Under the pieces are notes generated by a model. It searched no databases. It saw only the letters and a list, made by a program, of their open reading frames with translations, and was not told the origin of the DNA. 64,000 nt of DNA from Patescibacteria group bacterium (GTDB lineage Bacteria; Patescibacteriota; Saccharimonadia; UBA4664), in NCBI GenBank assembly GCA_028288925.1, contig JAQGHG010000012.1, positions 77,762 through 141,761 of the forward strand, read 5' to 3'. Numbering within the stretch: position 1 is the stretch's first letter; each line of letters starts with the position of its first letter. Shown in pieces: positions 2,642-56,895 of this stretch. A program made the translations under genes and the position numbers.

Positions 2642-3634
2642 ATGACACAACCAAAACTCATCATCCAAATACCCAGCTATAACGAAGAAAAAACCCTCAA
2701 AGACGTCCTCGACGGCATCCCCAAGCACATCCCGGGTGTCGGCGCTATCGAGACGCTCATCATCGATGACGGCTCACGCGACCGCACCCTCGAGATAGCC
2801 GAGGCCTATCCGGTCGATCACATCCTGCGCCACCGTCAAAACCGCGGCCTCGCCATCACCTTCGCCGATGGCATGCACGAATCGCTCCGCCTCGGCGCCG
2901 ATATTATCGTCAACATCGACGGCGACAACCAGCACCCCGCCAACCGCATCCCGGACCTCATCGCCCCCATCCTGGAGGGCACGCACGACATCGTGGTAGC
3001 CGACCGCGGCGTCCGTGGCATCAAGGAATTCAGCGCCACCAAGAAGCTCTTCCAGCGCCTCGGCAGCAAGGTCGTTCGCTGGGCCTCGCACACCAATGTC
3101 CCTGATGCCCCCTGCGGCTTCCGCGCCTACTCGCGCGAGGCCGCCCTCTCCACCAACATCATCACCACCTTCAGCTACACCATGGAGACCATCATCCAGG
3201 CCGGCCACAAACGTCTGGCCGTCACCCACGTCGCCATCCCCCAGCGCCCCAAAACCCGCGAGTCCCGTCTCTTCACCGGCATCGGCCAGCACATTTCCCG
3301 TTCGGCCGTCGCCATTCTGCGCAGTTACACCATGTATCAGCCCTTCAAGGTCTTCCTCCTGAGCGGCTTCCTGGTGTTCCTTATCGGGACTATTCCGTAC
3401 TGGCTGGTGCTCTACCGCGTCTTCGCCGAACCCTACAACGTCGGCGGTCACGTCCAATCATTAATCCTCGGTGCCGTCTTCATGATCCTCGGCATCATGT
3501 TCGTCATGATCGGCATCGTCGCCGACCTCCTCTCCATCAACCGCAAACTATTAGAGGACACGCTCTATCGCCTCAAGAAGATCGAGTATGGCGAGAGCCC
3601 ACACAAAACGGATCATCCCTTGAGCGGCCGATGA
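2642..3634 (+). CDS. GT2 polyprenol-phosphate sugar transferase (DPM1 / GtrB / ArnC-like) with C-terminal TM helices
   Basis: IPSYNEE...IDDGSRD GT2 signature; DxD region; two C-terminal hydrophobic helices; 330 aa. Confidence 0.8.
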   Translation: MTQPKLIIQIPSYNEEKTLKDVLDGIPKHIPGVGAIETLIIDDGSRDRTLEIAEAYPVDHILRHRQNRGLAITFADGMHESLRLGADIIVNIDGDNQHPANRIPDLIAPILEGTHDIVVADRGVRGIKEFSATKKLFQRLGSKVVRWASHTNVPDAPCGFRAYSREAALSTNIITTFSYTMETIIQAGHKRLAVTHVAIPQRPKTRESRLFTGIGQHISRSAVAILRSYTMYQPFKVFLLSGFLVFLIGTIPYWLVLYRVFAEPYNVGGHVQSLILGAVFMILGIMFVMIGIVADLLSINRKLLEDTLYRLKKIEYGESPHKTDHPLSGR

Positions 3635-4689
3635 ATATCCGATTGCTCTTCATTACCCGCGCTTATCCTCCGTCCGTGGGGGGGATGGAGCAAGTTTCCT
3701 ATAATCTCGCCCAAGCTCTCAAGGAAGAACTGCCGGTCGAAATTATCGCTTACGGAGGCAAAAGAATCGGCCTTCTGTGGTTTCTACCCCAGGCGTTCTT
3801 CCTGGCTCTCTGGAAAATATCCCGGCATGGCATTACGCACATTCATCTTGGGGATGCGGTCCTATCTCCTATCGGACTAGCCTTAAAGATACTCACGCGC
3901 AAAAAAGTTAGCGTCACCGTTCACGGTCTTGATGTCACTTACAAAAACCCCCTATATAGGGCCGTCAATCTGCCGAGCCTGCGCCACCTGGACAACATAA
4001 TCTGCGTTTCCAAACACACCCTAGAGCAATGCACCCAACGTGGCGTTCCTGCTAGCAAATGCACTGTCATACCCTGGGGCGTCGACCCACAAGAATTCCG
4101 CGTCACTGCTAGCCGCGAGGACCTGGAGGGCATCACGGACATGAACCTAAGTAATAAAAAAGTTCTCCTCACCGTCGGGCGGCTCGTCAAACGCAAAGGC
4201 GTCGCGTGGTTCATCGATCAAGTCATGCCCATCCTCGGCCCGGAGTACGTCTACCTGATAGTAGGGGAGGGCCCGGAGCGCCCGGCCATCGAGGCGACCA
4301 TTACAAACCACGGTCTCCACGACCGCGTAAGACTCCTCGGCCAACTACCCGACCGCGAGCGCACGGTCCTCTACAATACCTCCGACATCTTCATCATGCC
4401 CAACATCCCCCTGCCGGGCGACATGGAAGGGTTTGGGACGGTGGCGATAGAGGCATCCGTCGCGGGAATGCCGGTTGTAGGGAGTAATCTAGAAGGCGTA
4501 AAAGATGCGGTGATCGACGGCGAGACGGGCTGGCTTGCCTCGCCGCAGTCGCCGGCTGACTATATTATGTGCATAGGCAAGGCACGCGACACTAATCGTC
4601 TTCGTGTCGCCAGGATCACCGAACAAAAATTCAATTGGCGAGCCACTGCCATTGCTTACCGAAAGACTTTGGAGCACTCGTGCGCATAG
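3631..4689 (+). CDS. GT4 (group 1) glycosyltransferase
   Basis: C-terminal EGFGTVAIEA...GMPVVGS...DGETGWL motif typical of GT4; overlaps the upstream gene by 4 nt. Confidence 0.8.
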   Translation: MNIRLLFITRAYPPSVGGMEQVSYNLAQALKEELPVEIIAYGGKRIGLLWFLPQAFFLALWKISRHGITHIHLGDAVLSPIGLALKILTRKKVSVTVHGLDVTYKNPLYRAVNLPSLRHLDNIICVSKHTLEQCTQRGVPASKCTVIPWGVDPQEFRVTASREDLEGITDMNLSNKKVLLTVGRLVKRKGVAWFIDQVMPILGPEYVYLIVGEGPERPAIEATITNHGLHDRVRLLGQLPDRERTVLYNTSDIFIMPNIPLPGDMEGFGTVAIEASVAGMPVVGSNLEGVKDAVIDGETGWLASPQSPADYIMCIGKARDTNRLRVARITEQKFNWRATAIAYRKTLEHSCA

Positions 4690-5759
4690 CTATTATTTGT
4701 GAGCTCGCCAATACGCAACGACAAGGCGGCGAGCAGCATGCTATGCTTACGCTCGCTCGAGGATTGGCTAAGCAGGCTCATGTGGATGTATTCAGCTACG
4801 CTCCGTCCCAGGGTCAAAAGCTCATAGCAAGCAAAATACCTCTTGGGCTTCGGCTGCTACCATTTATTCGTGATATGTTCTTCCTGCCTATTATCGGGAG
4901 GTTCCTTCTGCGGAAGATTGATCAAGATTACGATGTTATTCAGGCGACATCATCTACTCTCGCGGCTTTTTATCGGCCGCGTACCCGGTTTATCGTTACT
5001 TGTCATATTATCCGCTCTCAAAAAATCCCACTTTTCTACCGCCTACCCAAATACTGGCTTTTATTCAATCCACTTACTTATCGGATCATGAAGCGGCTTG
5101 AGCGGCGAGGTCTGCGTAATGCCGATAACGTGGTCGTAATTCGCGAGCATCAACGCCAATTTCTTATTGACGAACTTAAAATATCGCCCAAAAAGATCAC
5201 TCTCATACCCAACGGTGTCGATGTGGAGATCTTTAAGCCACAAGCCACACCCAAGAAGAATCAGGTAGTTTTCGTCGGCCGTACGACCTTCCCAAAAGGC
5301 TTCAATTTGCTTGTTGACGCGGCTAATTATATCGAGGGCGATATTATCGTCATCACCCAAAAAGGCGCCTCTGAACTACTGGCAAGAGCTCAGAAAACAC
5401 CCAATATGCAAATCATCAAAAGTGCGCCGCCGGAAGTTGTAGCCGGACACTACGCGGAGTCTAAGGTATTTATCTTACCTTCTCTCGACGAGGAGCAGCC
5501 CCTCACCGTTCTGGAGGCACTCGCCTGCGGGCTTCCAATAGTGGTGTCCGAGAAAGCTGCGTCGGATGTGTTTACCAGAGAGAGTACCGTTGAAGGGAAG
5601 GTTCTCGATTATCTTCGGCCAGATACCATCGCTGAAGCGGTTAATTATTACCTGAGAACCAGCATGGGGACCATAAAAAGAAACCGCCAGATTGTTGTTG
5701 ACCAATATTCCCTCGAAAATAACCTGAACCATTACCTGAGGCTTTATGAAGATAGTTAA
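4679..5759 (+). CDS. GT4 (group 1) glycosyltransferase
   Basis: VFVGRTTFPKG...EEQPLTVLEALACGLPIVVS motif; probable GTG start at 4679 (VRIAIICELANT), overlapping the upstream stop. Confidence 0.75.
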
Positions 5760-7413
5760 ATGGATAAAAAGCGAGAAATTCCTTGTCATAATCGGCGGTC
5801 TGCTCGTATTCAGTTTTTATGCCTTAATTACACTCAATCTGAACATACATGGTGATTCTAAATTCCATACTCAATTTGCCAAGGAGAGTGTTGAAAGCGG
5901 GTTTCTCGTAAAGAACCAGCCATACAGGATTTACTCAATAAGTAATGGGCAGATAAGCTTTGAGCCTATCTCATACCCCCTAGGATCGGAGGCCTTATTC
6001 GGCTCTCTCTATGCTATCGGTGGTGAGACCCTACTCCAGTTGCTATCAGCAATAATGGCGCTTGGGGTTTATTTACTCGTCTATGTTTTGCTACGGGAAT
6101 TCGGCAAAAAAGTTGCCCTTCCTACGGCAATTTTATCGGTGTTGGTAGTCGGCGAAAGACTGTTCATGACGCCGTTGCTCGAACCACTCCTTCTGATCCT
6201 ATTACTCGGCGCGGTGGTGTGTGTCAAAAACTTCCTTCGTCAAAATGATAAAAAACAGCTTTACCTGGCGGCGCTTTTTGTAGGCGCGGCGACATGCATA
6301 AAACAACAGGGTCTAGTAGCACTATTCGCCATAGCGGGCTTCCTTACTTGTTTTTTTGTTTGGAAAATTGCCCACAAGGAATGGGGGCTAAGAAAGATAA
6401 GCGCGCTATTTATCTTTATCCTTATAGCGTTTACCGTCCCTGCTCCTTCGATTGCCGAACAAATACATCGGACAGGAACATTTGCTTTTGCGCCCGGAAG
6501 GACGGAACTGCCATCATCGATGCCTTTTTATAATCTGGTGCAACCACTGCTCACAAGTAAATTCGCTGTAAAACCTGAAGCCAAGGCAGCAATAAAGGAA
6601 CAGGTTAAGTACAACCAAAAAAAGCAATCTTTCACCGACAAGGTTAGGGGGTTCCTTTTAGCGCCTATCCTTTTTTACCGGTCTACGGATAGTGGTTTTC
6701 TTTCATCCAGCTACACAATGCTCTTCTACGGAACGCTCACATTGTTGTTACTATTCGTTATCGCATTGATACGACGCGGAGATGTCTTTGGAGGATTCCT
6801 CGTATACTTAATGATTACCGAAATGCTCGTTTCCTTTACCTTGAAAACGCCCATAACTCAGTACCACACCTTTGGAGTAATTCTGGTGGTTATGGTGCTG
6901 GCCCTAGCTCTGAAAAATCTTCTAGCTTTGGCCAAAGTACCCGGCATAGCCTACCTCCTTCTTGCTTTTGGGCTGTTCACATTTAACTACGCGGACTTGC
7001 TGGTCCCTTTGTGGAGCTCATCGGGTAGAGAGGACGGCCATAGCTTAACGGCCTACCAAAGAATAGGGGCATATGTCCAAGAGAGTACGCCCAAGAGCTC
7101 AATCTTTCTCGCTCCAGAGACAAGCTTCAGATATTATGCCAAGCGCGATACGATCTGGCTTACAGAGGACAACGCGGATGTCGTGATGCGCATCATCACC
7201 AACCCCAACCCCGATAATGAGCTGAAAGATTTACGTAGTCTATCCGTAACGCACGTAGTAATAAACGCGAGCCAGTTAAACCGATACGGAGTAAACGATT
7301 ATCTGCCGCCCGACGGGCTTTATGCGGGTATCAAAAACTCACCACATTTTAAGAAGCTCTATGACCCTTATGGTGATGGGCATTTCGTAATCTACGAGGT
7401 GCGCTATGAGTAA
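5746..7413 (+). CDS. polytopic membrane protein with C-terminal soluble domain (GT-C glycosyltransferase or O-antigen-polymerase-like candidate)
   Basis: 555 aa; about 12 hydrophobic helices then a roughly 150-aa hydrophilic C-terminus; lower-GC segment within the glycosyl cluster. Confidence 0.45.
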   Translation: MKIVKWIKSEKFLVIIGGLLVFSFYALITLNLNIHGDSKFHTQFAKESVESGFLVKNQPYRIYSISNGQISFEPISYPLGSEALFGSLYAIGGETLLQLLSAIMALGVYLLVYVLLREFGKKVALPTAILSVLVVGERLFMTPLLEPLLLILLLGAVVCVKNFLRQNDKKQLYLAALFVGAATCIKQQGLVALFAIAGFLTCFFVWKIAHKEWGLRKISALFIFILIAFTVPAPSIAEQIHRTGTFAFAPGRTELPSSMPFYNLVQPLLTSKFAVKPEAKAAIKEQVKYNQKKQSFTDKVRGFLLAPILFYRSTDSGFLSSSYTMLFYGTLTLLLLFVIALIRRGDVFGGFLVYLMITEMLVSFTLKTPITQYHTFGVILVVMVLALALKNLLALAKVPGIAYLLLAFGLFTFNYADLLVPLWSSSGREDGHSLTAYQRIGAYVQESTPKSSIFLAPETSFRYYAKRDTIWLTEDNADVVMRIITNPNPDNELKDLRSLSVTHVVINASQLNRYGVNDYLPPDGLYAGIKNSPHFKKLYDPYGDGHFVIYEVRYE

Positions 7414-8836
7414 TATGGGCCGGGGCGTTATGTATCTTGGCGTCTCATCAATCTTTTTCATGCTCTCTGGCTACCTGATAAATATATTACTCGGACGGCA
7501 CCTGGGGCCAGAATTATATGGTGCCTACGGGGTATTGATGTCGCTAATGACTACGATGAATATCATGCAAGTTTCGGGGATGCCGCAAGCGGTCAGCAAG
7601 TTTACGGCGGAAGATGAAGACAACTCCGAGGCTATCTTGCGCAGCGGCATTATGATTCAGCTATGGTCAACTCTTGTGATCGGATTAACGTTCTTTGTTT
7701 CAGCGCCTCTCTTCGCGGTCATCTTTAAAGATCCTGCCTTCACGGGCTACATGAGAGCCTTGTCGCTGGTCTTCCCTTTCTATGGGCTCTTCGCTCTCTA
7801 TGGTGGTTACTACAATGGCCGGCATAACTTTAAACGGCAAGCGATTATCAATAGCACCTACTCTGTCGTAAAGCTCGGGCTTGTCGTGGGGCTGGCGCTT
7901 GCATCTGGGCTCTATGGCGCCATCGCGGGCTTTGTTATGGCGTCGCTCTTTGCTCTTATTGGCGCTTTCCACAGGCCCAAAACCGTCCGAAGGTTTCCGT
8001 ATCGTCCTCTTATCTTGTACTCACTCCCACTTATCGGATTCGCGGTACTCTCCACCCTTCAGCTCTCCGTCGACCTCTTTTCCCTGAAGGCGATGACATC
8101 AGACGCGCGCTTGGTTGGGTATTACGCGGCCGCCCAAAGCATAGCAATCATTCCTTTCATGGCTATGAGCGCGATAGGACAAGTATTGTTCCCGAGCATC
8201 GCCAGGCAATTGGGCCAAGGCCGCGTACATGATGCGCGGAGGAGCATAAGACAAGCACTTCGCTACCTCTTATTGCTGTTAGTTCCTATTGCCGTGCTAA
8301 TAGCGGCAACAGCGCCTGACCTTATAAGTTTTCTCTTTGGCGCCAAATATTTACCCGCGGTTCCTGCGCTCCGGCTTCTTGTCCTCGGCTATGTTTTTCT
8401 GACGATATTTATGACATTCGCAAACATCCTAAACGGTTCAGGAAGAGCACATGCCTCGGCATTATGGGCCGGCATTGGCGTGGGCACCGCCTTTGTGCTG
8501 TGTATCCTTCTCATCCCTAATTACGGAAGTATCGGCGCCGCGGCGACAACCTGTATCGGGGCTTTTCTCGCGGCGGCGGGGGCGATTATAGCAACTTATC
8601 GCAGCCTCAAATTCAGGCCGCCATATCTCAGTATATTTAGACTGTCGATTGCGGCGATGGTGCTTTATGCGGCGGCCTATTTTGTAAGGCTGCCCACTGC
8701 GGTATTGCCGCTTTGGTATGTAGCATTAAGCGCGGCCTATGTTTGGCTACTTAGGCTTATGGGAGAAATCACCATCCAAGATTGGCAAATGACGAAAGCT
8801 CTATTCTCAAAACAAGACAGAGGAAGCGGATTATGA
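7406..8836 (+). CDS. polysaccharide biosynthesis protein / oligosaccharide flippase (Wzx, MOP superfamily)
   Basis: 476 aa; 12-14 TM helices; typical flippase hydrophobicity pattern; sits with GT genes. Confidence 0.7.
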   Translation: MSNMGRGVMYLGVSSIFFMLSGYLINILLGRHLGPELYGAYGVLMSLMTTMNIMQVSGMPQAVSKFTAEDEDNSEAILRSGIMIQLWSTLVIGLTFFVSAPLFAVIFKDPAFTGYMRALSLVFPFYGLFALYGGYYNGRHNFKRQAIINSTYSVVKLGLVVGLALASGLYGAIAGFVMASLFALIGAFHRPKTVRRFPYRPLILYSLPLIGFAVLSTLQLSVDLFSLKAMTSDARLVGYYAAAQSIAIIPFMAMSAIGQVLFPSIARQLGQGRVHDARRSIRQALRYLLLLLVPIAVLIAATAPDLISFLFGAKYLPAVPALRLLVLGYVFLTIFMTFANILNGSGRAHASALWAGIGVGTAFVLCILLIPNYGSIGAAATTCIGAFLAAAGAIIATYRSLKFRPPYLSIFRLSIAAMVLYAAAYFVRLPTAVLPLWYVALSAAYVWLLRLMGEITIQDWQMTKALFSKQDRGSGL

Positions 8837-10257
8837 ATAAAAACAAAAAGTGGTCACGGCTAACGGCCCTTGCGGGGTCCATGGTGTTAGTCGGATATAT
8901 CTTATTCGTCAACGCGATGCCATTAGGCGTGAGCTACGATTTCAAGCCAGGAAATAAAAATGTGTCATCGCTCGGCCCTGGAACCCGGGTTGAGACGCTA
9001 AATAGAAGTCAACGCCTCATCCAGGATCTCGCGTACTTCACGTCTAATATGACATTTCTTTTTGAACATGCACGAGTTCGCATGGCAATAAAAACTAGCG
9101 ATGTAAACCAGGTGGCTTGGTTGGGGTATAAAGACCAGCAAGCTTGGCATTACAACAATCAAGTTATAAGCGCGCCATTCATAGATTCATTAGGCTGGGC
9201 CAGGGTGGGAGAAGGGCCCTACCTCTATCAGAAACAACCAAGCTATAAGTCCTACGCCGATTTTATGGCTAATACACCTAGGGACAAATTTATAGGGGTC
9301 TATAACTACAGCGATACCGCGCTACGCCAGAGCAAGGCGGACATGTCAGGTTACAAGCCCGCCACCGCTGAAACGGTCGTCTCTACTCCTATCCGTGGCA
9401 AAGTTACAATGTACGCTTACCTCGCCAATGAGCCGTTTCGCCTCGCCGTCGAAAAAAGAGACCTTAATTGGTACAAAGATCCTGACGTTGCTACGGTAAA
9501 AGTCTACAAAGATACGGACAAAGTCTTCGAGACGACAATAGGTGACGACGGCAACACAAACGACGATCATCATCCAGGAGCCTCGCAACAAGCTGACATT
9601 AAGAACCCCGGCCCCGGACTGCCTGAAGCGGGTGTTTACAAAATTGTAATAGACGCACCGGACGACTCGATCATCACCAAAATCGCCACCAACATGCATA
9701 AGATTACGTTTGAAGGTCCTCTCCACCTGGCAGGCAACCATGAGGTTTACGGCGATGTTGTACCGCCGACCGCATCGGTTGACATCTTCACGAATGCCAC
9801 CGATGTCTCGGCGCAAGCATTCTCTAGGTCGGCTCAAACGCTCATAGCAGGTGGAAAATCAGTACCATTAACTCAATCACAAACGTTCATCAATCTCGCG
9901 TCCACGCCACAGATTAGTGCCATCAAGGCCCCCAAGAGTGACATCGTCATCAATGGCGTCGGCTACTTCGCCTTCAGCCAAGATCAATTCTTTGAACCCA
10001 CCCCCTATCACATTCTCCAAATCACCGGCCCCAAAGACCTCGAAAAAGTCGACTATGTACTCACCAACTACAAACCGCCCAAACAGCTCGGCGACGGCTG
10101 GGTAGAGGTGGAGCGGGAGTTTGATCTTAGCGGCGCCGTGGTGCAGAAAGGTAAGCTTAGTTGGGTTATTAGCGCGCCGGGACTGGCCGATAACAAGCGC
10201 AGTATCGAGATTAAGGATATTCAAATGACGCTCACTAAGAAAGGCTGGTTTAAGTAA
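8833..10257 (+). CDS. membrane-anchored extracytoplasmic protein of unknown function
   Basis: ATG at 8833 overlaps the upstream stop (ATGA); N-terminal TM anchor WSRLTALAGSMVLVGYILFV; about 475 aa. Confidence 0.5.
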   Translation: MNKNKKWSRLTALAGSMVLVGYILFVNAMPLGVSYDFKPGNKNVSSLGPGTRVETLNRSQRLIQDLAYFTSNMTFLFEHARVRMAIKTSDVNQVAWLGYKDQQAWHYNNQVISAPFIDSLGWARVGEGPYLYQKQPSYKSYADFMANTPRDKFIGVYNYSDTALRQSKADMSGYKPATAETVVSTPIRGKVTMYAYLANEPFRLAVEKRDLNWYKDPDVATVKVYKDTDKVFETTIGDDGNTNDDHHPGASQQADIKNPGPGLPEAGVYKIVIDAPDDSIITKIATNMHKITFEGPLHLAGNHEVYGDVVPPTASVDIFTNATDVSAQAFSRSAQTLIAGGKSVPLTQSQTFINLASTPQISAIKAPKSDIVINGVGYFAFSQDQFFEPTPYHILQITGPKDLEKVDYVLTNYKPPKQLGDGWVEVEREFDLSGAVVQKGKLSWVISAPGLADNKRSIEIKDIQMTLTKKGWFK

Positions 10258-10661
10258 TGGCGCGGATTACCGATATAGCTGTGGCTCTCGTGGGTGGCGC
10301 CTATGTACTCTTCGCGCCTGGTCTGGTGCTGTCGTTTGTGTTCTTCCGCCGCGACGCCATCGATTGGCTGGAGCGGGTGGCCCTGAGCTTTGCGCTATCG
10401 GTTGCCGTGGTGCCGCTGGTGGTGTTTTACTTGAACATGATAGGGATAAAACTGACGCGTCTAAGTGTGGTGCTGGAGGTTGCGGCGATAATGGTGGTGA
10501 GCGGGGGAGTGGTATGGTGGCGAGTCCGCCGGGTACAGCCGCGTAAGCCGCCGGCCGCCAAGCCCGCGCCGGTGATGGGACCAGAGCCCAGCGTCCCGCC
10601 AACCAAGCCCGCGCCCCGGCGGCGGTCCATGGACGCGGTAGGACGGAGGAACCATGAGTAA
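10257..10661 (+). CDS. small polytopic membrane protein with Pro/Lys-rich C-terminus
   Basis: 134-aa ORF; ATG overlaps the upstream TAA; 3-4 hydrophobic helices. Confidence 0.4.
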   Translation: MARITDIAVALVGGAYVLFAPGLVLSFVFFRRDAIDWLERVALSFALSVAVVPLVVFYLNMIGIKLTRLSVVLEVAAIMVVSGGVVWWRVRRVQPRKPPAAKPAPVMGPEPSVPPTKPAPRRRSMDAVGRRNHE

Positions 10662-10802
10662 CCAAAAGCAAACCCCAAACAACGGCCCCGACAGCCTCGA
10701 TGAGTTGGATTCAACCTTGCGCGGCGCCAAATTCAGCCTCTGGGCGACGGCCCGGGAGGCCTTCCAGCGGCTTGTCCGCAAGCTGACGCGGGGCCGGCGG
10801 CT

Positions 10803-11150
10803 ATGACTACGTGGCGCACCAACACCAATACTTCTAGCCGCGAATTCTTCCAAGTATCACTCGTGACGTATCTCCTGCTTACACTGGCCGAGGCGCTCAA
10901 GGAAGGATTTGTTTCGAACTTCTTTAATATGAATTATCTGCTGCTCGTGGTTTTACTCGCCGGAGTTGCCATGGTGCTCACCGAACCGGCCGAGAGCGAG
11001 ATCAAACGCACCATGGAGGTGGTGCACCAAGCCGTCCGCGCGCGTTTGGTCCGGCCAGCCGTGGATTCCGTCCGGAGAGCCGGCCGCTTCCGCACCATCG
11101 ATCTCCGCGAACAGCCCTCCCGAAAAATACCTACCAGTCGGCATCGTTAA
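10803..11150 (+). CDS. hypothetical small membrane protein (weak)
   Basis: 115-aa ORF with two hydrophobic segments; its ATG overlaps the TGA of an unlisted 50-aa ORF at 10654-10806 (ATGA). Confidence 0.25.
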   Translation: MTTWRTNTNTSSREFFQVSLVTYLLLTLAEALKEGFVSNFFNMNYLLLVVLLAGVAMVLTEPAESEIKRTMEVVHQAVRARLVRPAVDSVRRAGRFRTIDLREQPSRKIPTSRHR

Positions 11151-11177
11151 GACCACCACTACCAGATAAGAATTGCT

Positions 11178-11205
11178 ATTGGTGATTATCCTAATTATCA
11201 CCAAT
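11178..11205. promoter_or_regulatory. inverted repeat ATTGGTGAT-N10-ATCACCAAT, candidate operator upstream of the small secreted peptide gene
   Basis: 9-bp perfect arms read from sequence; a plausible TTGATC-N17-TAGAGT promoter lies about 30 nt downstream. Confidence 0.35.
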
Positions 11206-11296
11206 AATCCATGCCGGAAACCGTCAGATCATCCTGTTGATCAATCGGTTTATATCTATAGAGTAGGACGAGTAGTAGTAAGGAGGGGTGCATTCT

Positions 11297-11542
11297 ATGA
11301 AGCGAAAGCTCGCGTTAACGGCGGCCGCCATTGCAATAACCGGCATGGCAGCTTCCAGCGCACTGGCCGCGCCAGGCAACGACAACGGTAATAACAACAA
11401 CAGTCGTCCTGGCTGGGGTAACGGTGACGCTCAACATGTCCACACCGGACCACCGGGGGAGTCGGTAAACCCAGGACATCATCATTTCTTCTGGTGGTGG
11501 ATCTGGAATTTCTTGCGACATTTCCATTTCCCATGGTCATAA
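11297..11542 (+). CDS. small secreted peptide precursor with Gly/Asn-rich middle and His/Trp/Phe-rich C-terminus
   Basis: SD AGGAGG 10 nt upstream; Sec-type signal peptide MKRKLALTAAAIAITGMAASSALA; mature tail HHHFFWWWIWNFLRHFHFPWS; followed by its own terminator. Confidence 0.55.
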   Translation: MKRKLALTAAAIAITGMAASSALAAPGNDNGNNNNSRPGWGNGDAQHVHTGPPGESVNPGHHHFFWWWIWNFLRHFHFPWS

Positions 11543-11545
11543 AAA

Positions 11546-11571
11546 AGAGCGGCTCCGGCCGCTCTTTTTTT
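11546..11571 (+). terminator. rho-independent terminator
   Basis: AGAGCGGC-TCCG-GCCGCTCT hairpin followed by T7. Confidence 0.6.
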
Positions 11572-11645
11572 GTAACAATGCCCAAGTCGGAGATTATGGC
11601 TTTGAGGATACGATAAGAAGGTAATTAAGAGGTGAGGTAATAACT

Positions 11646-12251
11646 ATGAATGGACGTTCAGTATCAATCGCGCGCTCCATGGCCGTCATTGGCGGCACCG
11701 GAGCATTAATCGTAGCGGCTACATTTGCGGCATTTACGACCAATGCCGTATCGATAAACGGTACTACGCTGGCCGTGGAAGACAGCAGCGACTTTCTGCG
11801 TATCTACGATTTTGCCGGGGCCAACTTTGCCACCAGTACGGCCAACCCGGCCAACGCCGGCAACATCAACCTGACTCTGCATCAAGGGGTAGAGAGCGCC
11901 AAACAGCACTTCTATCTGCAGAACACTAGTACCGACACCGATATTGGCATATCGGTCAAGGCCGCCGGCGTAACCGGCACTATAGATCACACCAAGGTTA
12001 AAGTCAGGTTCTATGACGACGCCGCCAGCCCCCACCTTCTTGGGTCGGACACATTGGCCAACCTGGAGAGCACGGGAGTGGCGCTCAACACCGGCGAAGG
12101 CAAGCTTCCGTTTAACACGCAGGGCGACAGTAGTAGCCTAGGGACCGATCACAACGGTAACTATCTCGTGAGCTTCGAGCTTACCGGCTCCGGCGAAAAT
12201 GGCCACACCTTAAGCGACGTCAACCTGCTGTTCACTGGCACCAGTCTCTGA
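11646..12251 (+). CDS. TasA / camelysin-like secreted protein with SipW-cognate-class signal peptide
   Basis: N-terminus IGGTGALIVAATFAAFTTNAVSINGTTLAV resembles the TasA/CalY GGGT(W/F)A(A/Y)F(N/S)D...GTLDL region; immediately upstream of a SipW-like peptidase. Confidence 0.55.
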   Translation: MNGRSVSIARSMAVIGGTGALIVAATFAAFTTNAVSINGTTLAVEDSSDFLRIYDFAGANFATSTANPANAGNINLTLHQGVESAKQHFYLQNTSTDTDIGISVKAAGVTGTIDHTKVKVRFYDDAASPHLLGSDTLANLESTGVALNTGEGKLPFNTQGDSSSLGTDHNGNYLVSFELTGSGENGHTLSDVNLLFTGTSL

Positions 12252-12273
12252 CTCACGAAGTAAAGGTATAGCA

Positions 12274-13116
12274 ATGAAACGACTCGCACAGGTACTCAAA
12301 TACGCCACCCTGGCCGTTTACGGCCTGTGCGGGCTCGCTTTGCTAGCCTTCATGGTCCCGGCCACCGGCTTGCAGGCCAAGTCGGTCATCACCGGCAGTA
12401 TGCGGCCGGCTATTCCGCCGGGATCCCTCGTAATTATCCGAGAGACGCCTCTGGCGCGGCTGGCTACCGGGGACGTCGTCACTTATCGCAAAGCGCCGGG
12501 GTCGGTCGTCACCATCACGCACCGGATTATTGGAAAAACAGAAAAAGCCGGCATACCGTACCTCATTACCAAAGGTGACGCCAACCCTTCGGCCGATGTT
12601 GGAGTTCCGGGTGGCGCCGTTATCGGCAAAGTTGTATCACACGTGCCGTATGTGGGCGGCCTCGCCACCAGCATGAGGGGGCCGGCGGTGCTCTTGCTCG
12701 TAGTCGTCTTGCCGGGTCTGGTGGTCATATGGAATGAATTAAACCATTTGCGCCGTACCATGAGAGCGCCGGCGTCCAAACCCATCATTCTCCTGGTTCT
12801 GGTGTTGGCGCCGATCGTAGTCGGGGCTACCCGGGCCGCGCTTACTACCAATACCGCTCAGATCACCGGCATTGCCCTGGCTGTTGCGGCCGCCCCCGCT
12901 ACTCCCGCTCCGTGCCCGGGAACGGTCATCGTTCAGAACAATGGACCTGGCTCCGCCAACACGGTCACCTGCCATTCGTCGGTCACGGTCAACGCCCACA
13001 ACACTACGGCCGTCACCGTCACCAACACCTCCACCCAAACCAGTAGTACCGGTAGTGTTTCGGCAGTCCATAACGCCAATACCACCCACAGTAATATAAT
13101 CGTAAACGGCTTCTAG
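12274..13116 (+). CDS. signal peptidase I, SipW-like (ER/archaeal-type S26B), with roughly 118-aa C-terminal TM plus Thr/Asn-rich extension
   Basis: motifs ITGSMRP (SGSMEP-like), THRII (His box), KGDAN (KGDNN-like); N-terminal TM; extension starts MRAPASKPIILLVLVLAPIVVGATRAALTTNTA. Confidence 0.7.
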   Translation: MKRLAQVLKYATLAVYGLCGLALLAFMVPATGLQAKSVITGSMRPAIPPGSLVIIRETPLARLATGDVVTYRKAPGSVVTITHRIIGKTEKAGIPYLITKGDANPSADVGVPGGAVIGKVVSHVPYVGGLATSMRGPAVLLLVVVLPGLVVIWNELNHLRRTMRAPASKPIILLVLVLAPIVVGATRAALTTNTAQITGIALAVAAAPATPAPCPGTVIVQNNGPGSANTVTCHSSVTVNAHNTTAVTVTNTSTQTSSTGSVSAVHNANTTHSNIIVNGF

Positions 13117-13170
13117 AAAATTGGAACATTGTACGTAGATGGCAAATGCGAAAGGCATACCATACACAGC

Positions 13171-13605
13171 ATGCGCAGGAGGATAATCATCGGAATAACG
13201 GCTCTCAGCCTGGCAGTACTGGGCGGATTTGTCGTGTCAGTTCATTCACAACCTATCGCGAAGGCTGCTTCCACTGCCGACCAATCCAACCTCAGGCTGT
13301 CGCTCGATGTTTGGAACGGCCGGATAGTACACCAGGAAGTCAAGGCCACCGGCAACGCCAAAGTGGCCATAAGTACGCCGCCGCCGTGGCCCGCCCCAAG
13401 TGTCCCGCCGCCGGTTCCGCGCGGTACGACAGCTACAGGCTACACCGGCGTAAATGTCTCCAGCGCGCGGGTGAGTATCTCGGATTCTTCCACTCAGATT
13501 ACGAGTACGGGTGACGTCAATATCCACCACTCTAGCAGTAGCTCGTCTTCTAATGGTTCCAGCACCAACCGTAGCTCGGTACATATAACCATTAATAACC
13601 ACTAG
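13171..13605 (+). CDS. secreted Ser/Thr-rich low-complexity protein
   Basis: signal-peptide-like MRRRIIIGITALSLAVLGGFVVSVHS; the ORF track starts it at 13129. Confidence 0.4.
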   Translation: MRRRIIIGITALSLAVLGGFVVSVHSQPIAKAASTADQSNLRLSLDVWNGRIVHQEVKATGNAKVAISTPPPWPAPSVPPPVPRGTTATGYTGVNVSSARVSISDSSTQITSTGDVNIHHSSSSSSSNGSSTNRSSVHITINNH

Positions 13606-13679
13606 TCCCAACATCTGGACCCGCTAGCCATACGGTCGTGTCTAGGAGTATTGTAATAGTTGGATTAATTGGGATACCT

Positions 13680-15098
13680 ATGCTCGCAGCTTCATTTAAA
13701 CGCACTAAAATCGTGGCCACTATCGGCCCATCATCAAACTCGCCGCAGGTGCTCGAGGAGTTGCTGCTGGCCGGGGTAAATATGTTCCGGCTCAACTTCT
13801 CGCACGGCACCCATGAGGAGCACGGCCAAGTGGCCAAATATGCCCGGCATCTCTCCGACAAACACGGCAAGCCGGTGGCCGTTCTGGCCGACATTCAGGG
13901 GCCCAAGATTCGCGTAGGCACTCTGCCTATTGACGGGCTGCCGTTTGTCCGCGGCAACGTCGTGCGCTTCCAGTTTGGCGCCGACTACGAAGCCAGCGGT
14001 GTTATCCCCGTCCAGCACGACATCTCCAAATACCTCAAGAACGGCGAGCGCGTCTTCCTTCGCGACGGCCAGGTACAGATCGAGGTAGAGAAGATTCAAA
14101 AACAGCTCATCACCGGCAAAGTGCTCACGCCGGGCATCGTCTTCTCGAACCAAGGCATGAACCTGCCCGACACCGACCTAGGCGGCGATATCCTCACGCC
14201 CAAGGACATCGCCGATATTGAATTCGCCGCCAGCCAGGGTGTGGATTACATTGGGTATTCCTTCGTACAAACCGCCGATGACATTCATAAGCTGCGCGAG
14301 CGGCTCGTCAAGCTCAAATGTGACGCCAAAATCATCGCCAAGATCGAGACCGCCGCGGCCGTCGAAAACCTCGAAGAGATCGTGGCCGCCACCGACGTCA
14401 TCATGGTAGCGCGCGGCGATCTGGCCATCGAGACCAAGCCCGAAGCCGTCCCCGCCGCCCAGCGCCGCATGATCGAGCTCGGCAAACAATACCGCAAGCC
14501 CGTCATCGTCGCTACCCAAATGCTCGAAAGCATGATCCAGTCGCAGCAGCCCACCCGCGCCGAGGTGTCCGATGTGGCCACCGCCGTCCTCGAAGGCACC
14601 GACGCCGTCATGCTCTCCGGCGAGACCGCCATGGGCCTCTTCCCGGTCGAGGCCGTCAAGATGATGAAACGCGTCATTCTCTACACCGAGCGCGAAGAAA
14701 TCGCCGGCCGCAACAACCTGCCCGAATGGCGCGACTTCGGCCACGAACGCCAAAACGCCATCTCCGCCGCCGCCGTGGTGCTAGCCAACCAACTGCCGGC
14801 CAAGGTCATCATCGCCGAGACCAGCTCCGGCCAGACCGCCCGCAATATCTCCGCGCTGCGCCCCAACATGCCCATCATCATGGTGACCGACCACAAGCGC
14901 GTCTACTACCAAATGGCCATCGTCTGGGGCGGCAAATCCTACTTTGCCAAAGACATGAAGGGCGCCACCGACCACGTCATCCGCCAGCTCAAAGCCGCCG
15001 AAAATATCACCAAAGGCGACGCCGCCGTGGTCGCCTCGGGCAACCAGCCCGGCTTGGTCGGCGGCACCGATAAAGTCGTCATCAAGATCACCGAGTAA
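13680..15098 (+). CDS. pyk: pyruvate kinase
   Basis: KIVATIGP, NFSHG, MVARGDL motifs; about 470 aa. Confidence 0.9.
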   Translation: MLAASFKRTKIVATIGPSSNSPQVLEELLLAGVNMFRLNFSHGTHEEHGQVAKYARHLSDKHGKPVAVLADIQGPKIRVGTLPIDGLPFVRGNVVRFQFGADYEASGVIPVQHDISKYLKNGERVFLRDGQVQIEVEKIQKQLITGKVLTPGIVFSNQGMNLPDTDLGGDILTPKDIADIEFAASQGVDYIGYSFVQTADDIHKLRERLVKLKCDAKIIAKIETAAAVENLEEIVAATDVIMVARGDLAIETKPEAVPAAQRRMIELGKQYRKPVIVATQMLESMIQSQQPTRAEVSDVATAVLEGTDAVMLSGETAMGLFPVEAVKMMKRVILYTEREEIAGRNNLPEWRDFGHERQNAISAAAVVLANQLPAKVIIAETSSGQTARNISALRPNMPIIMVTDHKRVYYQMAIVWGGKSYFAKDMKGATDHVIRQLKAAENITKGDAAVVASGNQPGLVGGTDKVVIKITE

Positions 15099-15106
15099 CG
15101 CGCGCG

Positions 15107-15370
15107 ATGGGGCATCTCGCCGACTCCGAACTCCAAAGCCGCCTAGCTCAGGCGGCCAGTCAGGTCTCGATAGGCGCCGAATATGTGCACTACAAAGGCA
15201 ATATCTACCTAGTGACCGGCTTGGCCATCCTCGAAGCCACCGATGAAGTTGGCATCATTTACGATGCTCGATATGGCGAAGGTCTCACATTTGTGCGGGC
15301 GCTCGAGTCGTGGCTCGAAACGGTTGAATATAAGGGGGAAAATGTGCCCCGCTTTGCGCGCCGTCGCTAA
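15107..15370 (+). CDS. small DUF1653-like protein
   Basis: YVHYKGNIYLVTGLA...IIYDARYG pattern recalled for DUF1653; 87 aa. Confidence 0.4.
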   Translation: MGHLADSELQSRLAQAASQVSIGAEYVHYKGNIYLVTGLAILEATDEVGIIYDARYGEGLTFVRALESWLETVEYKGENVPRFARRR

Positions 15371-15436
15371 GATGGCTAGCTATACATGAGCGCGTCCAAA
15401 TCCGCTACACTACCAATGACAGTAACCGGGGTCCTT

Positions 15437-16633
15437 ATGAAGAAGAAAACCATCCGCGATATCGACATCAAAGGTAAGACCATCCTGGCTCGCCTCGACT
15501 GGAACGTACCCATCAAGGACGGCCAGGTCACCGACGCCTACCGCATCGAGTCCACCCGGCCCACCATCGACTACTTGCTTGAGCAAGGCTGCAAAGTCAT
15601 CATCACGAGCCACCTCGGCCGCCCCGACGGTAAGCCTGATCCCAAGTTTAGTCTCGCGCCGGCCGCCAAAAAAGCCGCCGAAGTCCTCGGCCGCGAGGTT
15701 AAATTCATAGCCGATTGCGTAGGTACCGAAGTCCAGGCCGCCGTCGCCGCGCTCGAGCCCGGCCAGTTGCTCTGCCTCGAAAACGTCAGATTCCACCCCG
15801 AAGAAGAGGCCAACGACCCGGCTTTCGCCAAGCAGCTGGCGGACCTCGCCGAAGTCTTCGTCTACGACGCCTTCGCTTCATATCGCCCGCACGCTTCCAC
15901 CGAAGGCGTCGCGCACTACCTGCCCGCCGTGGCCGGTCTGCTGGTCGAAAAAGAAGTCGATTACATCACCGGCGCCGTCGAGCACCCCAACCGCCCACTC
16001 GTAGCCGTCATCGGCGGGGCCAAAGTCTCGACCAAGCTCGAGATCCTCACCAACCTCGTATCCAAGGTCGACGCCATGCTCCTTACCGGGCCCATCGCCA
16101 GCACCTTTGCTTACACCGAAGGCCGCGCCATCGGCAAAAGTGTCGCCGAGCGCGATCAGACCGAGGCCGTCAAAAAACTCCTCGAAATCGCCAAAACCGA
16201 AAACACCCAAGTCCTCCTACCCGAAGAGGTCGTCGTATCTAAGAGCTTGGAGAAGCCTCAAGACATTCACACCGTCAGCCTCGGCAGCGTCAAAGACGAC
16301 GAATACATCGTCGATGCCACCCCCGCCTACGGCGAGGTCCTCAAGCGCACCATCTACGACTTCCTCGACTTCGACGGCAAGGCCACCATCATCTGGAACG
16401 GCCCCCTCGGCCTCACCGAAGTGCCCGAATTCCGCGCCGGCTCCCGCGCCATGGCCCAGGCCATCATCGACAGCAAAGGCATCTCCATTATCGGCGGCGG
16501 CGACACCGCCAGCTTCCTCGACCAAGAAGGCCTACACGACAAATTTACTTGGGTGTCCACCGGCGGCGGCGCCAGTCTAGAGCTCATGAGCGGCAAGGGC
16601 TTGCCCTGCGTCGACGCATTGCTCGACAAATAG
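15437..16633 (+). CDS. pgk: phosphoglycerate kinase
   Basis: ARLDWNVP, IITSHLGRP, GGGDT and GGGASLE motifs; the ORF track begins earlier at 15386. Confidence 0.92.
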   Translation: MKKKTIRDIDIKGKTILARLDWNVPIKDGQVTDAYRIESTRPTIDYLLEQGCKVIITSHLGRPDGKPDPKFSLAPAAKKAAEVLGREVKFIADCVGTEVQAAVAALEPGQLLCLENVRFHPEEEANDPAFAKQLADLAEVFVYDAFASYRPHASTEGVAHYLPAVAGLLVEKEVDYITGAVEHPNRPLVAVIGGAKVSTKLEILTNLVSKVDAMLLTGPIASTFAYTEGRAIGKSVAERDQTEAVKKLLEIAKTENTQVLLPEEVVVSKSLEKPQDIHTVSLGSVKDDEYIVDATPAYGEVLKRTIYDFLDFDGKATIIWNGPLGLTEVPEFRAGSRAMAQAIIDSKGISIIGGGDTASFLDQEGLHDKFTWVSTGGGASLELMSGKGLPCVDALLDK

Positions 16634-16691
16634 CTCACGGGTCCTGTCACCCGTAAGCCTAGTTGCTCAGAGTGCAATAAAGGTAGGCGGA

Positions 16692-16786
16692 GGGAATATG
16701 CGCTTTGTGCCAGCCAGCGCCGGTCCAGATATTGGCTCCACCGAAGAGAAGGACAGCGTTCGCTGGCCAACAAAGCGCATATTCCC
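16692..16786. repeat. palindromic repeat element, copy A (intergenic pgk-tpiA): 17-bp outer inverted repeat GGGAATATGCGCTTTGT / ACAAAGCGCATATTCCC around a conserved core
   Basis: read directly; the core TGTGCCAGCCAG...GGCTCCACCGAAGAGA...GCGTTCGCTGGCCA is about 86% identical to copy B at 22607-22697. Confidence 0.7.
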
Positions 16787-16883
16787 GCAGCAAAAAAATA
16801 AAAGCTTCTCCCAAGCAAAAACCTGATAGAAACGTGACACAATGCTCGCAAAGCATTACCATTATTAATGAAATGAGGGTAAT

Positions 16884-17648
16884 ATGCGGCTAATCGTCGG
16901 AAACTGGAAGATGAACTTAAACCCGGGCGAGGCCAGCTTGCTCGTGAAGCGCCTAGAGGACAAAATAAAGCCCGATCCTAAAACTGAGATCGTCATTTGC
17001 CCGCCGTTCATCGATCTGTATCCTATCGCCAAAGACCTCGACCGCGGTAAGCTCAAGCTGGGCTCGCAAAACATCCACTACCTCGACGAAGGACCCTTCA
17101 CCGGTGAAATCTCCCCGGCCATGCTCAAGGGCCTGGCCGATTACGCCATCATCGGCCACTCCGAGCGCCGGGCCATGGGCGAAGACGACAAGCTGATCGC
17201 CAAAAAAATGGCGGCCGCCATCCGCAATGACATCACGCCCGTCCTCTGCGTCGGCGAGACCCTGGCCGAGCGCCAGCACGGTCTGGCCAAAAAGGTGATA
17301 GTCGACCAGCTCACCGCCGACCTCACCCAGCTCACCGCCACCGACGTTGCCAAAATCGTCGTAGCCTACGAGCCCGTCTGGTCCATCAACCACGGCGACG
17401 GCAACATCGTGCACGCCAAGCCCGAAGACATCACCTTTGCCTACACCACCATCCGCACTCTCCTGGAGGAACTCTACGGCGAAGAGGGCGTGAGCGGCTT
17501 ACGGCTGCTCTATGGCGGCAGCGCCGATCCCGGCCATTGCCGAGCCTACTTAGAAATGCCTTATGTCGACGGGCTACTCGTCGGCGGCGCCAGCCTAAAT
17601 TACGAAGATTTCGCCAAGATAGTCAAAGTTGCTCAAGGTTTAAAGTAG
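16884..17648 (+). CDS. tpiA: triosephosphate isomerase
   Basis: GNWKMN, IIGHSERR, CVGETL, AYEPVWSI motifs. Confidence 0.92.
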   Translation: MRLIVGNWKMNLNPGEASLLVKRLEDKIKPDPKTEIVICPPFIDLYPIAKDLDRGKLKLGSQNIHYLDEGPFTGEISPAMLKGLADYAIIGHSERRAMGEDDKLIAKKMAAAIRNDITPVLCVGETLAERQHGLAKKVIVDQLTADLTQLTATDVAKIVVAYEPVWSINHGDGNIVHAKPEDITFAYTTIRTLLEELYGEEGVSGLRLLYGGSADPGHCRAYLEMPYVDGLLVGGASLNYEDFAKIVKVAQGLK

Positions 17649-56818: not shown

Positions 56819-56895
56819 GGGGCATTAGCTCAGCTGGCTAGAGCGCTGCATTCGCATTGCAGAGGTCAAGAGTTCGAATCTCTTATGCTCCACCA
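56819..56895 (+). tRNA. tRNA-Ala (anticodon CGC), CCA-encoded
   Basis: GGGGCAT acceptor stem with G3:U70; anticodon stem CTGCA/TGCAG, loop TTCGCAT; T-arm GGTCAAGAGTTCGAATCTCTT; 3' ACCA. Confidence 0.88.

Follow-up and report, generated by a model that had tools for sequence, protein, structure and literature searches.

Does the three-gene locus at 11646–13605 of the window (the whole 64,000-nt stretch of Saccharimonadia DNA analysed here) encode an extracellular fibre of the TasA type, and if so, what would start such a fibre? TasA fibres are the reference model for the scaffolds of Gram-positive biofilms, and their initiation and anchoring are still debated. Patescibacteria live attached to host cells, and their surface appendages are mostly uncharacterised besides the type IV pili. 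An earlier note on this DNA had read the locus as a TasA/camelysin-like protein, a SipW-type signal peptidase and a third secreted low-complexity protein, and had taken this to imply a fibre or matrix system.

ORF calling gave three co-directional ORFs, all on the + strand: ORF A (11646–12251, 201 aa), ORF B (12274–13116, 280 aa) and ORF C (13129 or 13171 to 13605, 158 or 144 aa). The motifs quoted in the earlier note are present in them ('VIGGTGALIVAATFAAFTTNAVSINGTTLAV' in ORF A; GSMRP, the His box and KGDAN in ORF B). The features of the locus are as follows.

11545..11575, +: hairpin and T-run aaaaaaGAGCGGCtccgGCCGCTCttttttt, 3' of the preceding 84-aa ORF (read directly from the sequence)
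11627..11637, +: Shine-Dalgarno-like GAGGTGAGG, 9 nt 5' of the ORF A ATG (from the sequence)
11646..12251, +: ORF A, 201 aa, predicted secreted beta-sandwich, putative major fibre subunit, distantly TasA/camelysin-like (family profile, hhalign, AF2, Foldseek)
11646..11729, +: predicted signal peptide of ORF A, aa 1–28 (hhalign register versus TasA)
11730..11783, +: mature N-terminal strand of ORF A, aa 29–46, AFTTNAVSINGTTLAVED, putative donor strand (hhalign to the TasA 28–46 donor strand and linker; PMC9674648)
12274..12738, +: peptidase module of ORF B, aa 1–155, with an N-terminal TM helix, the S26B domain and a C-terminal TM helix at about aa 137–153 (TIGR02228; SEC11A alignment; 25 homologues)
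12739..12837, +: basic loop of ORF B (aa 156–169, LNHLRRTMRAPASK) and third hydrophobic segment (aa 170–185), ending in T186-R187-A188 (sequence; aligned in 25 homologues)
12838..12891, +: copy in ORF B of the mature N-terminal strand of ORF A, aa 189–206, ALTTNTAQITGIALAVAA (HMM match; co-variation; position profiles)
12892..13116, +: tail of ORF B, aa 207–280, with a Pro/Ala linker, a Cys-x-GPGS-x-Cys box and an N/S/T-rich 'TNTSTQTSSTGSVS' module (module conserved in homologues)
13171..13605, +: ORF C, 144 aa from ATG (158 aa from TTG at 13129), with an N-terminal hydrophobic segment, a Pro-rich linker and an N/S/T-rich module (BLASTP; positional counterparts)

The hairpin at 11545..11575 is not among the entries of the consensus scan. 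Judged by its sequence and position it is probably the end of the upstream transcription unit, in which case ORF A would begin a new one. ORF A lies directly upstream of ORF B in the window and in L001–L005, L007–L013, L031, L055 and L060; this adjacency is kept in every related locus examined, and also in many loci with unfused peptidases. The conserved arrangement of a subunit gene with a dedicated peptidase resembles that of tapA-sipW-tasA-type operons. No second signal peptidase was found within the window.

ORF A has a predicted cleavage site at TFA28|A29F, with Thr at P-3, Ala at P-1 and Phe at P2', the counterpart of TWA|AF in TasA. The register was taken from TasA, whose mature N-terminus A28 is visible in the structure 8AUR. 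Among 136 members of the A family, P-3 is Thr in 97% and P-1 is Ala in 100%, and the pattern of T at P-3, A at P-1 and F or L at P2' agrees with TasA (PMC10269814). The family comprises 173 clusters; its N-terminal strand and first core strands are the most conserved parts. The SipW-cognate/TasA signature that had been claimed for ORF A is borne out by the cleavage site, the first strand and the family profile, but ORF A itself has no match to either Peptidase_M73 (PF12389) or TIGR04088 at E ≤ 1. PF12389 was weakly matched by 13 of the 136 members (best 2.1e-5), TIGR04088 by 30 (best 3.4e-4) and NF046066 by three, and some members also match TasA/BsaA models. In hhalign, the A-family profile and the TasA/CalY profile aligned at 96.9% (E 2e-10) over 88 columns, in the N-terminal half only; comparison of the mature parts, with the signal peptides removed, gave 80% (E 1.4e-5). 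As far as these profiles tell, the relation of ORF A to TasA/camelysin is a remote one at superfamily level, confined to the N-terminal half and visible at family level only.

The peptidase module of ORF B contains the motifs 'TGSMRP', 'TITHRI' and 'TKGDANP'. It scored 83.9 bits against the archaeal/ER-type model TIGR02228 (cutoff 51.85, residues 23–157), while the 25.3 bits against the bacterial-type TIGR02227 are below the cutoff of 47. In a phmmer alignment Ser42, His83 and Asp102, in the boxes GSM(S42), TH(H83)R and KGD(D102)AN, fall on the GSMEP, VHR and KGDNN boxes of human SEC11A (7P2P), and S42, H83, D102 and D108 are invariant across 25 homologues. Ser-His(-Asp) are the established catalytic residues of SEC11/SipW, in place of the bacterial Ser-Lys dyad. 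By sequence, ORF B is an archaeal/ER-type (S26B) signal peptidase and not LepB, just as the earlier note had proposed. Its further assignment as SipW-type is sustained for class and context only: with 64.6 bits ORF B stays below the cutoff of 190 for the Bacillus SipW equivalog NF046067, and by the NCBI criterion it is SipW-like but not a SipW orthologue.

ORF B continues past the peptidase module. Residues 156–188 resemble a signal peptide lying inside the chain, with a -3/-1 cleavage motif at its end; the residues joining TM2 to TM3 are basic (RR..R..K), in keeping with the topology. At the internal site of the ORF B homologues, P-3 is T/A/V in 96% and P-1 is A/S in 92%. What follows this site is a copy of the N-terminal strand of ORF A: TRA|ALTTNTAQITGIALAV in ORF B (residues 185–206) corresponds to TFA|AFTTNAVSINGTTLAV in ORF A (residues 25–46), so that the cleavage site and the first 16–18 mature residues are duplicated. 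An HMM of the 'signal + strand' region of the A family found only ORF A (6.5e-17) and this segment of ORF B (1.7e-4) among 824 ORF fragments of the window, and it matched 16 of 30 long peptidase homologues versus 2 of 86 short ones. The position profiles of A and B run parallel, with matched conservation at P+2, +5, +7, +9, +12 and +14. Cognate A/B pairs share 97 of 198 identities, compared with 65 when the pairings are shuffled (P<1e-5, 11 pairs), and the strand copy in B co-varies with A genome by genome. The tail beyond the strand (74 aa) matched no Pfam or NCBIfam family, TIGR04088 included, and its 'N-x-N-x-Q-x-A-x-SG-N' module is conserved in homologues. This tail with its second signal-like segment and strand copy, the most distinctive feature of the locus, had been overlooked in the earlier note.

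The donor strand of TasA consists of residues 28–38, and the mature N-terminus of TapA resembles this strand and nucleates fibres, for which TapA residues 44–57 alone suffice (PMC9674648, PMC10151520). In ORF B, the HMM match, the profiles and the co-variation likewise point to a look-alike of the major subunit's strand after a SipW-type site. Since a second signal-peptide-like segment and a copy of the A strand follow the peptidase module within ORF B, the likeliest place for a TapA-like accessory role is the tail of the peptidase, and not, or not only, ORF C. At its length and low complexity this tail could not hold the V-set Ig domain of TapA, and it would be a functional TapA analogue at most.

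The tail might instead be no more than an exported substrate joined to its peptidase, such as an N/S/T-rich protein that is wall-associated or adhesive, with the motif acting as a recognition signal and having no role in fibre initiation. The shared motif does take in the -3/-1 cleavage determinants, TIGR04088 is a signal class and not a fibre function, and fused tails with LTD, fn3 or OmpL47-type domains elsewhere look like independent adhesins. Yet the conservation and co-variation reach P+14/+16, far past the known reading range of type I signal peptidases, and the conserved positions (+5, +7, +9, +12, +14) alternate as they would in a beta-strand. In addition, the equivalent residues of TasA and TapA are the donor strand (PMC9674648, PMC10151520). 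A tail that is substrate only is unlikely.

The AF2 monomer model of ORF A is a beta-sandwich (pLDDT 85.7, pTM 0.77) with the N-terminal strand, at residues 35–44, folded back. The top PDB matches of the model in Foldseek, all weak, are self-complemented FimA (2M5G/5NKT), the TasA fibre (8AUR), a Sulfolobus thread (7PNB) and PapA (2UY6), all of them donor-strand filaments; the match to 8AUR has a TMq of 0.35, an E of 0.012 and a prob of 0.97. This weak likeness to TasA and the pilins would also suit a monomeric secreted or surface beta-sandwich (an adhesin, a binding protein or a camelysin-type protease), with the operon being a dedicated export module only. The same could be said of the size of ORF A, which has about 60 residues fewer than TasA and lacks the C-terminal half that aligns in the Bacillus proteins, and of the historical name of the family, which is that of a protease (PF12389, camelysin). 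However, the conservation of the family peaks at the N-terminal and first core strands, and TasA-like proteins conserve the protomer interface most (PMC10151520). Moreover, the sequence of ORF A shows neither HExxH nor another metalloprotease motif, and a co-evolving second copy of the strand on another protein is hard to explain if A is a monomer. We regard a monomeric ORF A as unlikely.

Long fused peptidases in which a third hydrophobic segment is followed by a TasA-type motif recur across classes of Patescibacteria. The tail of one of them (L015) passes TIGR04088 (25.1 bits versus 19), and fused tails in other Patescibacteria are large surface proteins built from several domains (LTD, fn3, OmpL47-type). 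That the long ORF B is an annotation or assembly artefact, in which a peptidase of about 165 aa and a small TapA-like protein have been merged by a missed stop or a frameshift, or in which the tail has its own internal start, is very unlikely: the nearest clade often has a Met just before the third hydrophobic segment ('LDGM') and MAG assemblies do carry frameshifts (e.g., in the A gene of L008), but more than 20 independent assemblies, drawn from different projects and classes, carry the fusion in frame and with linkers of 14 to more than 90 residues, a second, 98%-identical assembly (P0154) has the same 280-aa ORF, 'RRxLDG' upstream of the Met is conserved at the protein level and argues that this region is translated, and ORF B of the window has no Met at the relevant position except M163 within the basic loop. 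A SipW-cognate signal fused to the peptidase itself was not found in the searchable literature, and to our knowledge the family description of TIGR04088 holds no such fusion. Systems of this kind could be sought in genomes by a simple signature: an S26B peptidase whose length exceeds about 270 aa and which contains the motif T-x-A|x-[LF]-x-x-N/D internally.

We put at about even the chance that the locus encodes a TasA-like donor-strand fibre with a TapA-like initiator or anchor fused to a SipW-like peptidase. In such an extracellular fibre or matrix system of a Saccharimonadia-like Patescibacteria cell, ORF A would be exported by Sec and cut after TFA28 by the dedicated peptidase B. The freed N-terminal strand of A would enter the beta-sandwich of the next subunit, as in TasA, and A would polymerise by donor-strand exchange. 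ORF B would be bifunctional: after the catalytic domain and the second membrane helix, the chain may recross the membrane by the third, signal-peptide-like helix and display the T-x-A cleavage site and the matching copy of the A strand on the outside. Most likely B would cut its own tail, in cis or in trans, setting free a small N/S/T-rich protein whose new N-terminus could fill the acceptor groove of the first A and start the fibre, the role that the TapA N-terminus has for TasA. An uncleaved tail would instead tether the base of the fibre to the membrane.

The locus shares several traits with tapA-sipW-tasA of Bacillus subtilis: a dedicated ER/archaeal-type peptidase encoded beside its substrates, a T-x-A|A-F/L cleavage context in the subunit, an N-terminal strand that is profile-homologous to the TasA donor strand, and a second polypeptide with a look-alike of this strand right after a SipW-type site, as in TapA. 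Unlike TasA, mature A is about 170 aa long (234 in TasA), scores below the PF12389/TIGR04088 thresholds and aligns in its N-terminal half only, and the peptidase is not the SipW equivalog. TapA is a separate protein, whereas the TapA-like strand of the locus is carried at the C-terminal end of the peptidase itself, after one more membrane pass, and no TapA Ig domain is present. The gene order also differs, being subunit, peptidase (with the initiator) and small protein.

The archaeal bundling pili AbpA/AbpB of Pyrobaculum calidifontis and the Sulfolobus threads also have TasA-related or analogous beta-sandwich subunits with an N-terminal donor strand, which is likewise folded back in AlphaFold monomers, and A has the thread subunit 7PNB among its top Foldseek matches. 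For AbpA/AbpB, the minor partner has been proposed as donor of the first strand and carrier of distal adhesive domains (PMC9245690). Unlike the window, the archaeal loci have no dedicated peptidase. AbpB is a protein of its own, with several domains of which one is TapA-like, whereas the partner in the window is much smaller and fused to the peptidase. Among known structures the A model comes closest, if weakly, to the chaperone-usher pilins FimA and PapA, Ig-like subunits that a donor strand completes. They have no sequence relationship to it, no periplasmic chaperone or outer-membrane usher is present, and the envelope of the host is of the monoderm type; this likeness is analogy only. The syntax of a signal followed by a first strand is shared with the TIGR04088 proteins of Firmicutes, Actinobacteria and Archaea and with BsaA of Clostridium perfringens, but A and the tail of B are too divergent to score in this class.

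A natural fusion of a peptidase and a TapA-like strand that co-evolves with the subunit would lend independent evolutionary support to the model of a first strand supplied by the initiator, and a subunit of about 170 aa with an 18-residue primer would offer a minimal test system. For Patescibacteria, the locus suggests that besides the type IV pili there may be a second and widespread class of filaments, candidates for attachment or matrix formation. More tentatively, it is possible that Patescibacteria have merged two parts of TasA assembly, such that a SipW-type peptidase processes its own tail and the strand for priming or anchoring a donor-strand fibre is thereby set free or kept at the membrane. 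If so, the stoichiometry and location of the initiator would be coupled to the processing enzyme, the variable distal tail domains (N/S/T-rich, LTD, fn3, OmpL47-type) would be adhesins of the fibre tip or base, and these episymbiotic, ultra-small bacteria would share a surface-appendage system that is widespread and so far undescribed.

The third gene, ORF C, is the secreted low-complexity protein that the earlier note had described 3' of the peptidase; it has a hydrophobic N-terminus and a Ser/Thr/Asn-rich tail. Its start is more likely ATG 13171 (MRRRIIIG...) than TTG 13129, as the former agrees with the starts of its homologues. With the same N/S/T-rich module as ORF B, it could be a further minor or wall-associated component. 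ORF C and the tail of ORF B are related by BLASTP (E 0.003 in the window, 6e-8 in L003), and positional counterparts of ORF C are found in L001, L003 and L006.

The window is part of a Patescibacteria MAG; the product of ORF A is identical to the NCBI protein "JWN01_605, Patescibacteria group bacterium," and the nearest genomic relatives of the locus are found within Candidatus Saccharimonadia/Saccharibacteria. The locus consists of three co-directional ORFs, with intergenic gaps of 22 nt (A–B) and 12–54 nt (B–C), in which every motif string quoted by an earlier note was found:

11646–12251, + strand: ORF A, 201 aa, secreted β-sandwich protein
12274–13116, + strand: ORF B, 280 aa, signal peptidase with a C-terminal tail
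13129/13171–13605, + strand: ORF C, 158/144 aa, small N/S/T-rich protein

A hairpin with a T-run (11545–11575), located after an 84-aa ORF (11288–11542), and a strong Shine-Dalgarno sequence ahead of A suggest that A is the first gene of a transcription unit.

ORF B scored 83.9 bits against TIGR02228 (archaeal/ER-type signal peptidase I, cutoff 51.85) and 25.3 bits against the bacterial-type model, below its cutoff of 47, which bears out the class proposed in the earlier note. Among proteins of solved structure, human SEC11A and SEC11C are the closest; GSM(S42)RP, TH(H83)R, and KGD(D102)AN of B align onto the SEC11 catalytic boxes, and S42, H83, D102, and D108 are invariant among 25 homologs. 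The Bacillus SipW equivalog cutoff was not reached (64.6 vs. 190), and B is SipW-like by class and context but not an ortholog by this measure. The 64-kb window contains no other signal peptidase gene.

Compared with a plain SipW-like enzyme, B has ∼100 extra residues, a feature that the earlier note overlooked. This part of the protein is arranged as follows:

about aa 137–153: C-terminal membrane helix, preceding the tail
LNHLRRTMRAPASK: basic loop after the C-terminal membrane helix
aa 170–185: third hydrophobic segment, after the basic loop
T186-R187-A188, then ALTTNTAQITGIALAV: cleavage-site motif and strand, after the third hydrophobic segment

T186-R187-A188 with the following strand is a copy of ...TFA|AFTTNAVSINGTTLAV in A. 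From the positive-inside rule, the basic loop would be cytoplasmic and the strand copy would lie on the outer face beside the catalytic domain. When the window was translated in six frames and its 824 ORF fragments were scanned with an HMM of the A-family signal peptide and first strand, the sole matches were A (6.5e-17) and the B segment in question (1.7e-4); in the reciprocal test a B-family HMM matched A. Of 30 B homologs with at least 280 aa, 16 carry the motif, always at residues ∼180–255, and the HMM gave just two insignificant matches among 86 short homologs. Relative to the predicted cleavage site, the A and B profiles run in parallel at P-3 (T), P-1 (A), P+2 (L/F), P+5 (N), and P+7 (V/A), and further out at P+9 (L), P+12 (N), and P+14 (L/I). 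Only P-2 departs from this pattern, with an aromatic residue in A and R/H/Y in B.

A had been proposed to be TasA/camelysin-like, but in profile searches it matched neither Peptidase_M73 nor TIGR04088. A word-indexed search returned just four relatives; an exhaustive profile search gave a family of 173 cluster representatives, nearly all of 180–215 aa. When 136 family members were scanned individually, 13 weakly matched Peptidase_M73, 30 matched TIGR04088 (cognate_SipW), and a few matched the TasA, BsaA, and TIGR04089 models. The A-family profile was also compared with a TasA/CalY alignment, seeded with a TasA sequence that was verified to be identical to PDB 8AUR over its mature part. The two aligned with 96.9% probability (E 2e-10) over 88 columns that take in the signal peptide and mature N-terminal strand as well as the "L-x-PG-D...F-x-L-x-N-x-G-x-L" strand. 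Because the probability falls to 80% (E 1.4e-5) without the signal peptides and to 56% when the N-terminal strand is removed as well, the comparison argues for a distant homology that is centered on the N-terminal half, rather than for family membership. The alignment register with TasA predicts cleavage of A at TFA28|A29F, the counterpart of TWA27|A28F in TasA. Both have an aromatic residue at P2', to which the poor suitability of TasA as a substrate of LepB has been attributed (PMC10269814). Across the A family, every member has Ala at P-1 and 97% have Thr at P-3. In one member (L008, 3226–3991 of a 1.1-Mb contig) the gene has a 1-nt frameshift inside the signal peptide, reflecting either an assembly error or a pseudogene.

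An AlphaFold model of A, built with a 136-sequence alignment (pLDDT 85.7, pTM 0.77), predicts a signal helix (4–28), an N-terminal strand (35–44), and a β-sandwich. In a Foldseek comparison of this model with the PDB, every match fell short of E 1e-3, with TM-scores of 0.30–0.38. The leading matches were nevertheless all subunits of donor-strand-complemented filaments: FimA (self-complemented), the TasA fibre 8AUR (prob 0.97), PapA, and the Sulfolobus thread 7PNB. That A is a monomeric surface protein seems to us unlikely.

A and B also vary together, as seen for the L001 locus (A AFQTNTVTLADSQFTT vs. B ALQTNTVTLADSHLAI) and the L005 locus (A QLTSNTVALTNNSVTV vs. B LLTSNTVSLTGNRITV). For 11 A/B pairs from the window and nine related contigs, cognate partners are identical at 97 of 198 positions, while shuffled pairings average 65, and none of 100,000 shuffles was as high as observed. 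As every A-to-B comparison crosses one ancient duplication, this excess within genomes means concerted evolution, through either the tracking of a common partner surface or gene conversion.

A scan of species-representative genomes showed a peptidase ORF of 270–1148 aa in 23 of the best 80 loci. Twenty of these are from Patescibacteria (Saccharimonadia, Paceibacterota/Parcubacteria, Kaiserbacteria, Roizmanbacteria, Andersenbacteria, and Shapirobacteria). The long-ORF tails open with a third hydrophobic segment and then a classic TasA/camelysin N-terminus, e.g., "STVSYFSDTEGTIANALMARFLDF" and "NAYGLDTETSNDNFFSAGSLDFSLSA." HMMs placed the motif at residues ∼200–290 in 14 of the 23 long ORFs (weak individual E-values, 6e-5 to 0.4), and the 57 short ORFs had no such motif; a fifteenth nominal match in L024 (E 2.0, residue 927) lies outside this region and was left out. 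The L015 tail scores above the curated TIGR04088 cutoff (25.1 vs. 19), and that of L045 has a sub-threshold Peptidase_M73 match ahead of fn3, OmpL47-type, and LTD domains, the last of which are also present in L024, L060, and L086. Since long peptidases with TasA-type tails recur, B is a minimal member of a recurrent architecture in which the peptidase is fused to its own substrate. That the fusion is an annotation artefact is very improbable. Two fused examples with high-GC, Actinobacteria-like composition (P0186 and P0204), whose tails have a TasA-like "LWIRNTG" strand, suggest that the fusion extends beyond Patescibacteria; P0186 ends in an LPXTG-type sortase signal (LPRTGG) and a membrane anchor.

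Other features of these tails vary. The Patescibacteria contig L009 has two tandem copies of the subunit and fused-peptidase pair (329–2227 and 3427–5143); the second peptidase tail weakly matches the lamin-tail domain (PF00932), and the first looks similar. In B homologs (P0155–P0163, L014–L028), the cytoplasmic linker between the second and third hydrophobic segments contains a short conserved motif, which reads "RRxLDGM" in the Saccharimonadia clade and "R-x-MDI-x-P" among Paceibacterota and their relatives; the 14-residue linker of B has neither. A Cys-containing module, "CKNGGW..F.NPDGS.MFKNQGQC," occurs in the tails of P0158, P0161, P0162, and L031 and, in L001, within a small secreted ORF of its own (914–1336) that lies upstream of A; it is absent from the window.

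In Bacillus subtilis, SipW cleaves both TasA and TapA, the TasA donor strand comprises residues 28–38, and the mature N-terminus of TapA resembles this strand and nucleates fibres; secretion of TapA residues 44–57 alone restores biofilms (PMC9674648, PMC10151520). The results here are at the sequence level; by analogy with Bacillus we infer a similar scheme, to which we give about an even chance as a whole: B would cut A at A28|A29, A would polymerize through donor-strand exchange, and the first strand would be supplied by B's own tail, either cleaved at A188|A189 or still membrane-tethered. In this scheme the initiator or anchor would be made 1:1 with the peptidase, in keeping with published findings that both TapA and SipW are much scarcer than TasA (PMC10151520). 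A rival reading, in which the tail is simply another exported substrate with the recognition signal in common, we consider rather unlikely. A TasA-like gene beside a SipW-like peptidase is the kind of thing expected in Patescibacteria, since a phylogenomic survey mentions PF12389 homologs there in a single sentence (PMC9245690). Open-access papers and bioRxiv yielded no account of a fusion between a SipW-type peptidase and a TasA/TapA-type signal and strand, and nothing on a TasA-like/SipW-like system in Saccharibacteria.

The third secreted low-complexity protein of the earlier note is confirmed in C, which has a hydrophobic N-terminal segment and, beyond a Pro-rich linker, an N/S/T-rich end. 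This end resembles the B tail, with BLASTP E-values of 0.003 in the window and 6e-8 for the pair in L003. C has no A-like strand and matched no family model in profile searches. Positional counterparts occur in the related loci L001, L003, and L006, which share the order A-B-C-pyruvate kinase-phosphoglycerate kinase (-triose-phosphate isomerase); these three glycolytic genes lie directly downstream in the window (13638–17648), and pyruvate kinase is also downstream in L007. The genes upstream of A are:

3631–4689 and 4635–5759: two GT4 glycosyltransferases
5746–7413: PMT_2-like membrane protein (25.8 bits, slightly below the 26.1 cutoff)
7406–8836: Wzx/Polysacc_synt-type flippase
8782–10257: 491-aa secreted protein with a hydrophobic N-terminal segment
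10257–10661: small membrane protein, DUF1616 (PF07760, 49.5 bits vs. cutoff 31.6, first third of the model only), with a Pro/Ala/Arg-rich C-terminal half
11288–11542: 84-aa secreted peptide with a signal peptide, a stretch rich in Asn and Gly, and, at its end, an unusual sequence rich in His, Trp, and Phe (HHHFFWWWIWNFLRHFHFPWS)

Because these genes do not adjoin A-B in the related genomes examined, the conserved system is A-B, with C in the nearest clade. Profile searches gave no family match for the 491-aa or the 84-aa ORF, and related loci have no equivalent of the former. The glycan-biosynthesis cluster directly upstream (3631–8836) could glycosylate the Ser/Thr/Asn-rich tails of B and C, although this cluster is not conserved beside A-B elsewhere. 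Nearly all long ORFs of the window are on the + strand, GC skew is negative in all 2-kb bins but 10001–12000 (cumulative -3.88), and a single tRNA-Ala(CGC) is located at 56819–56895.
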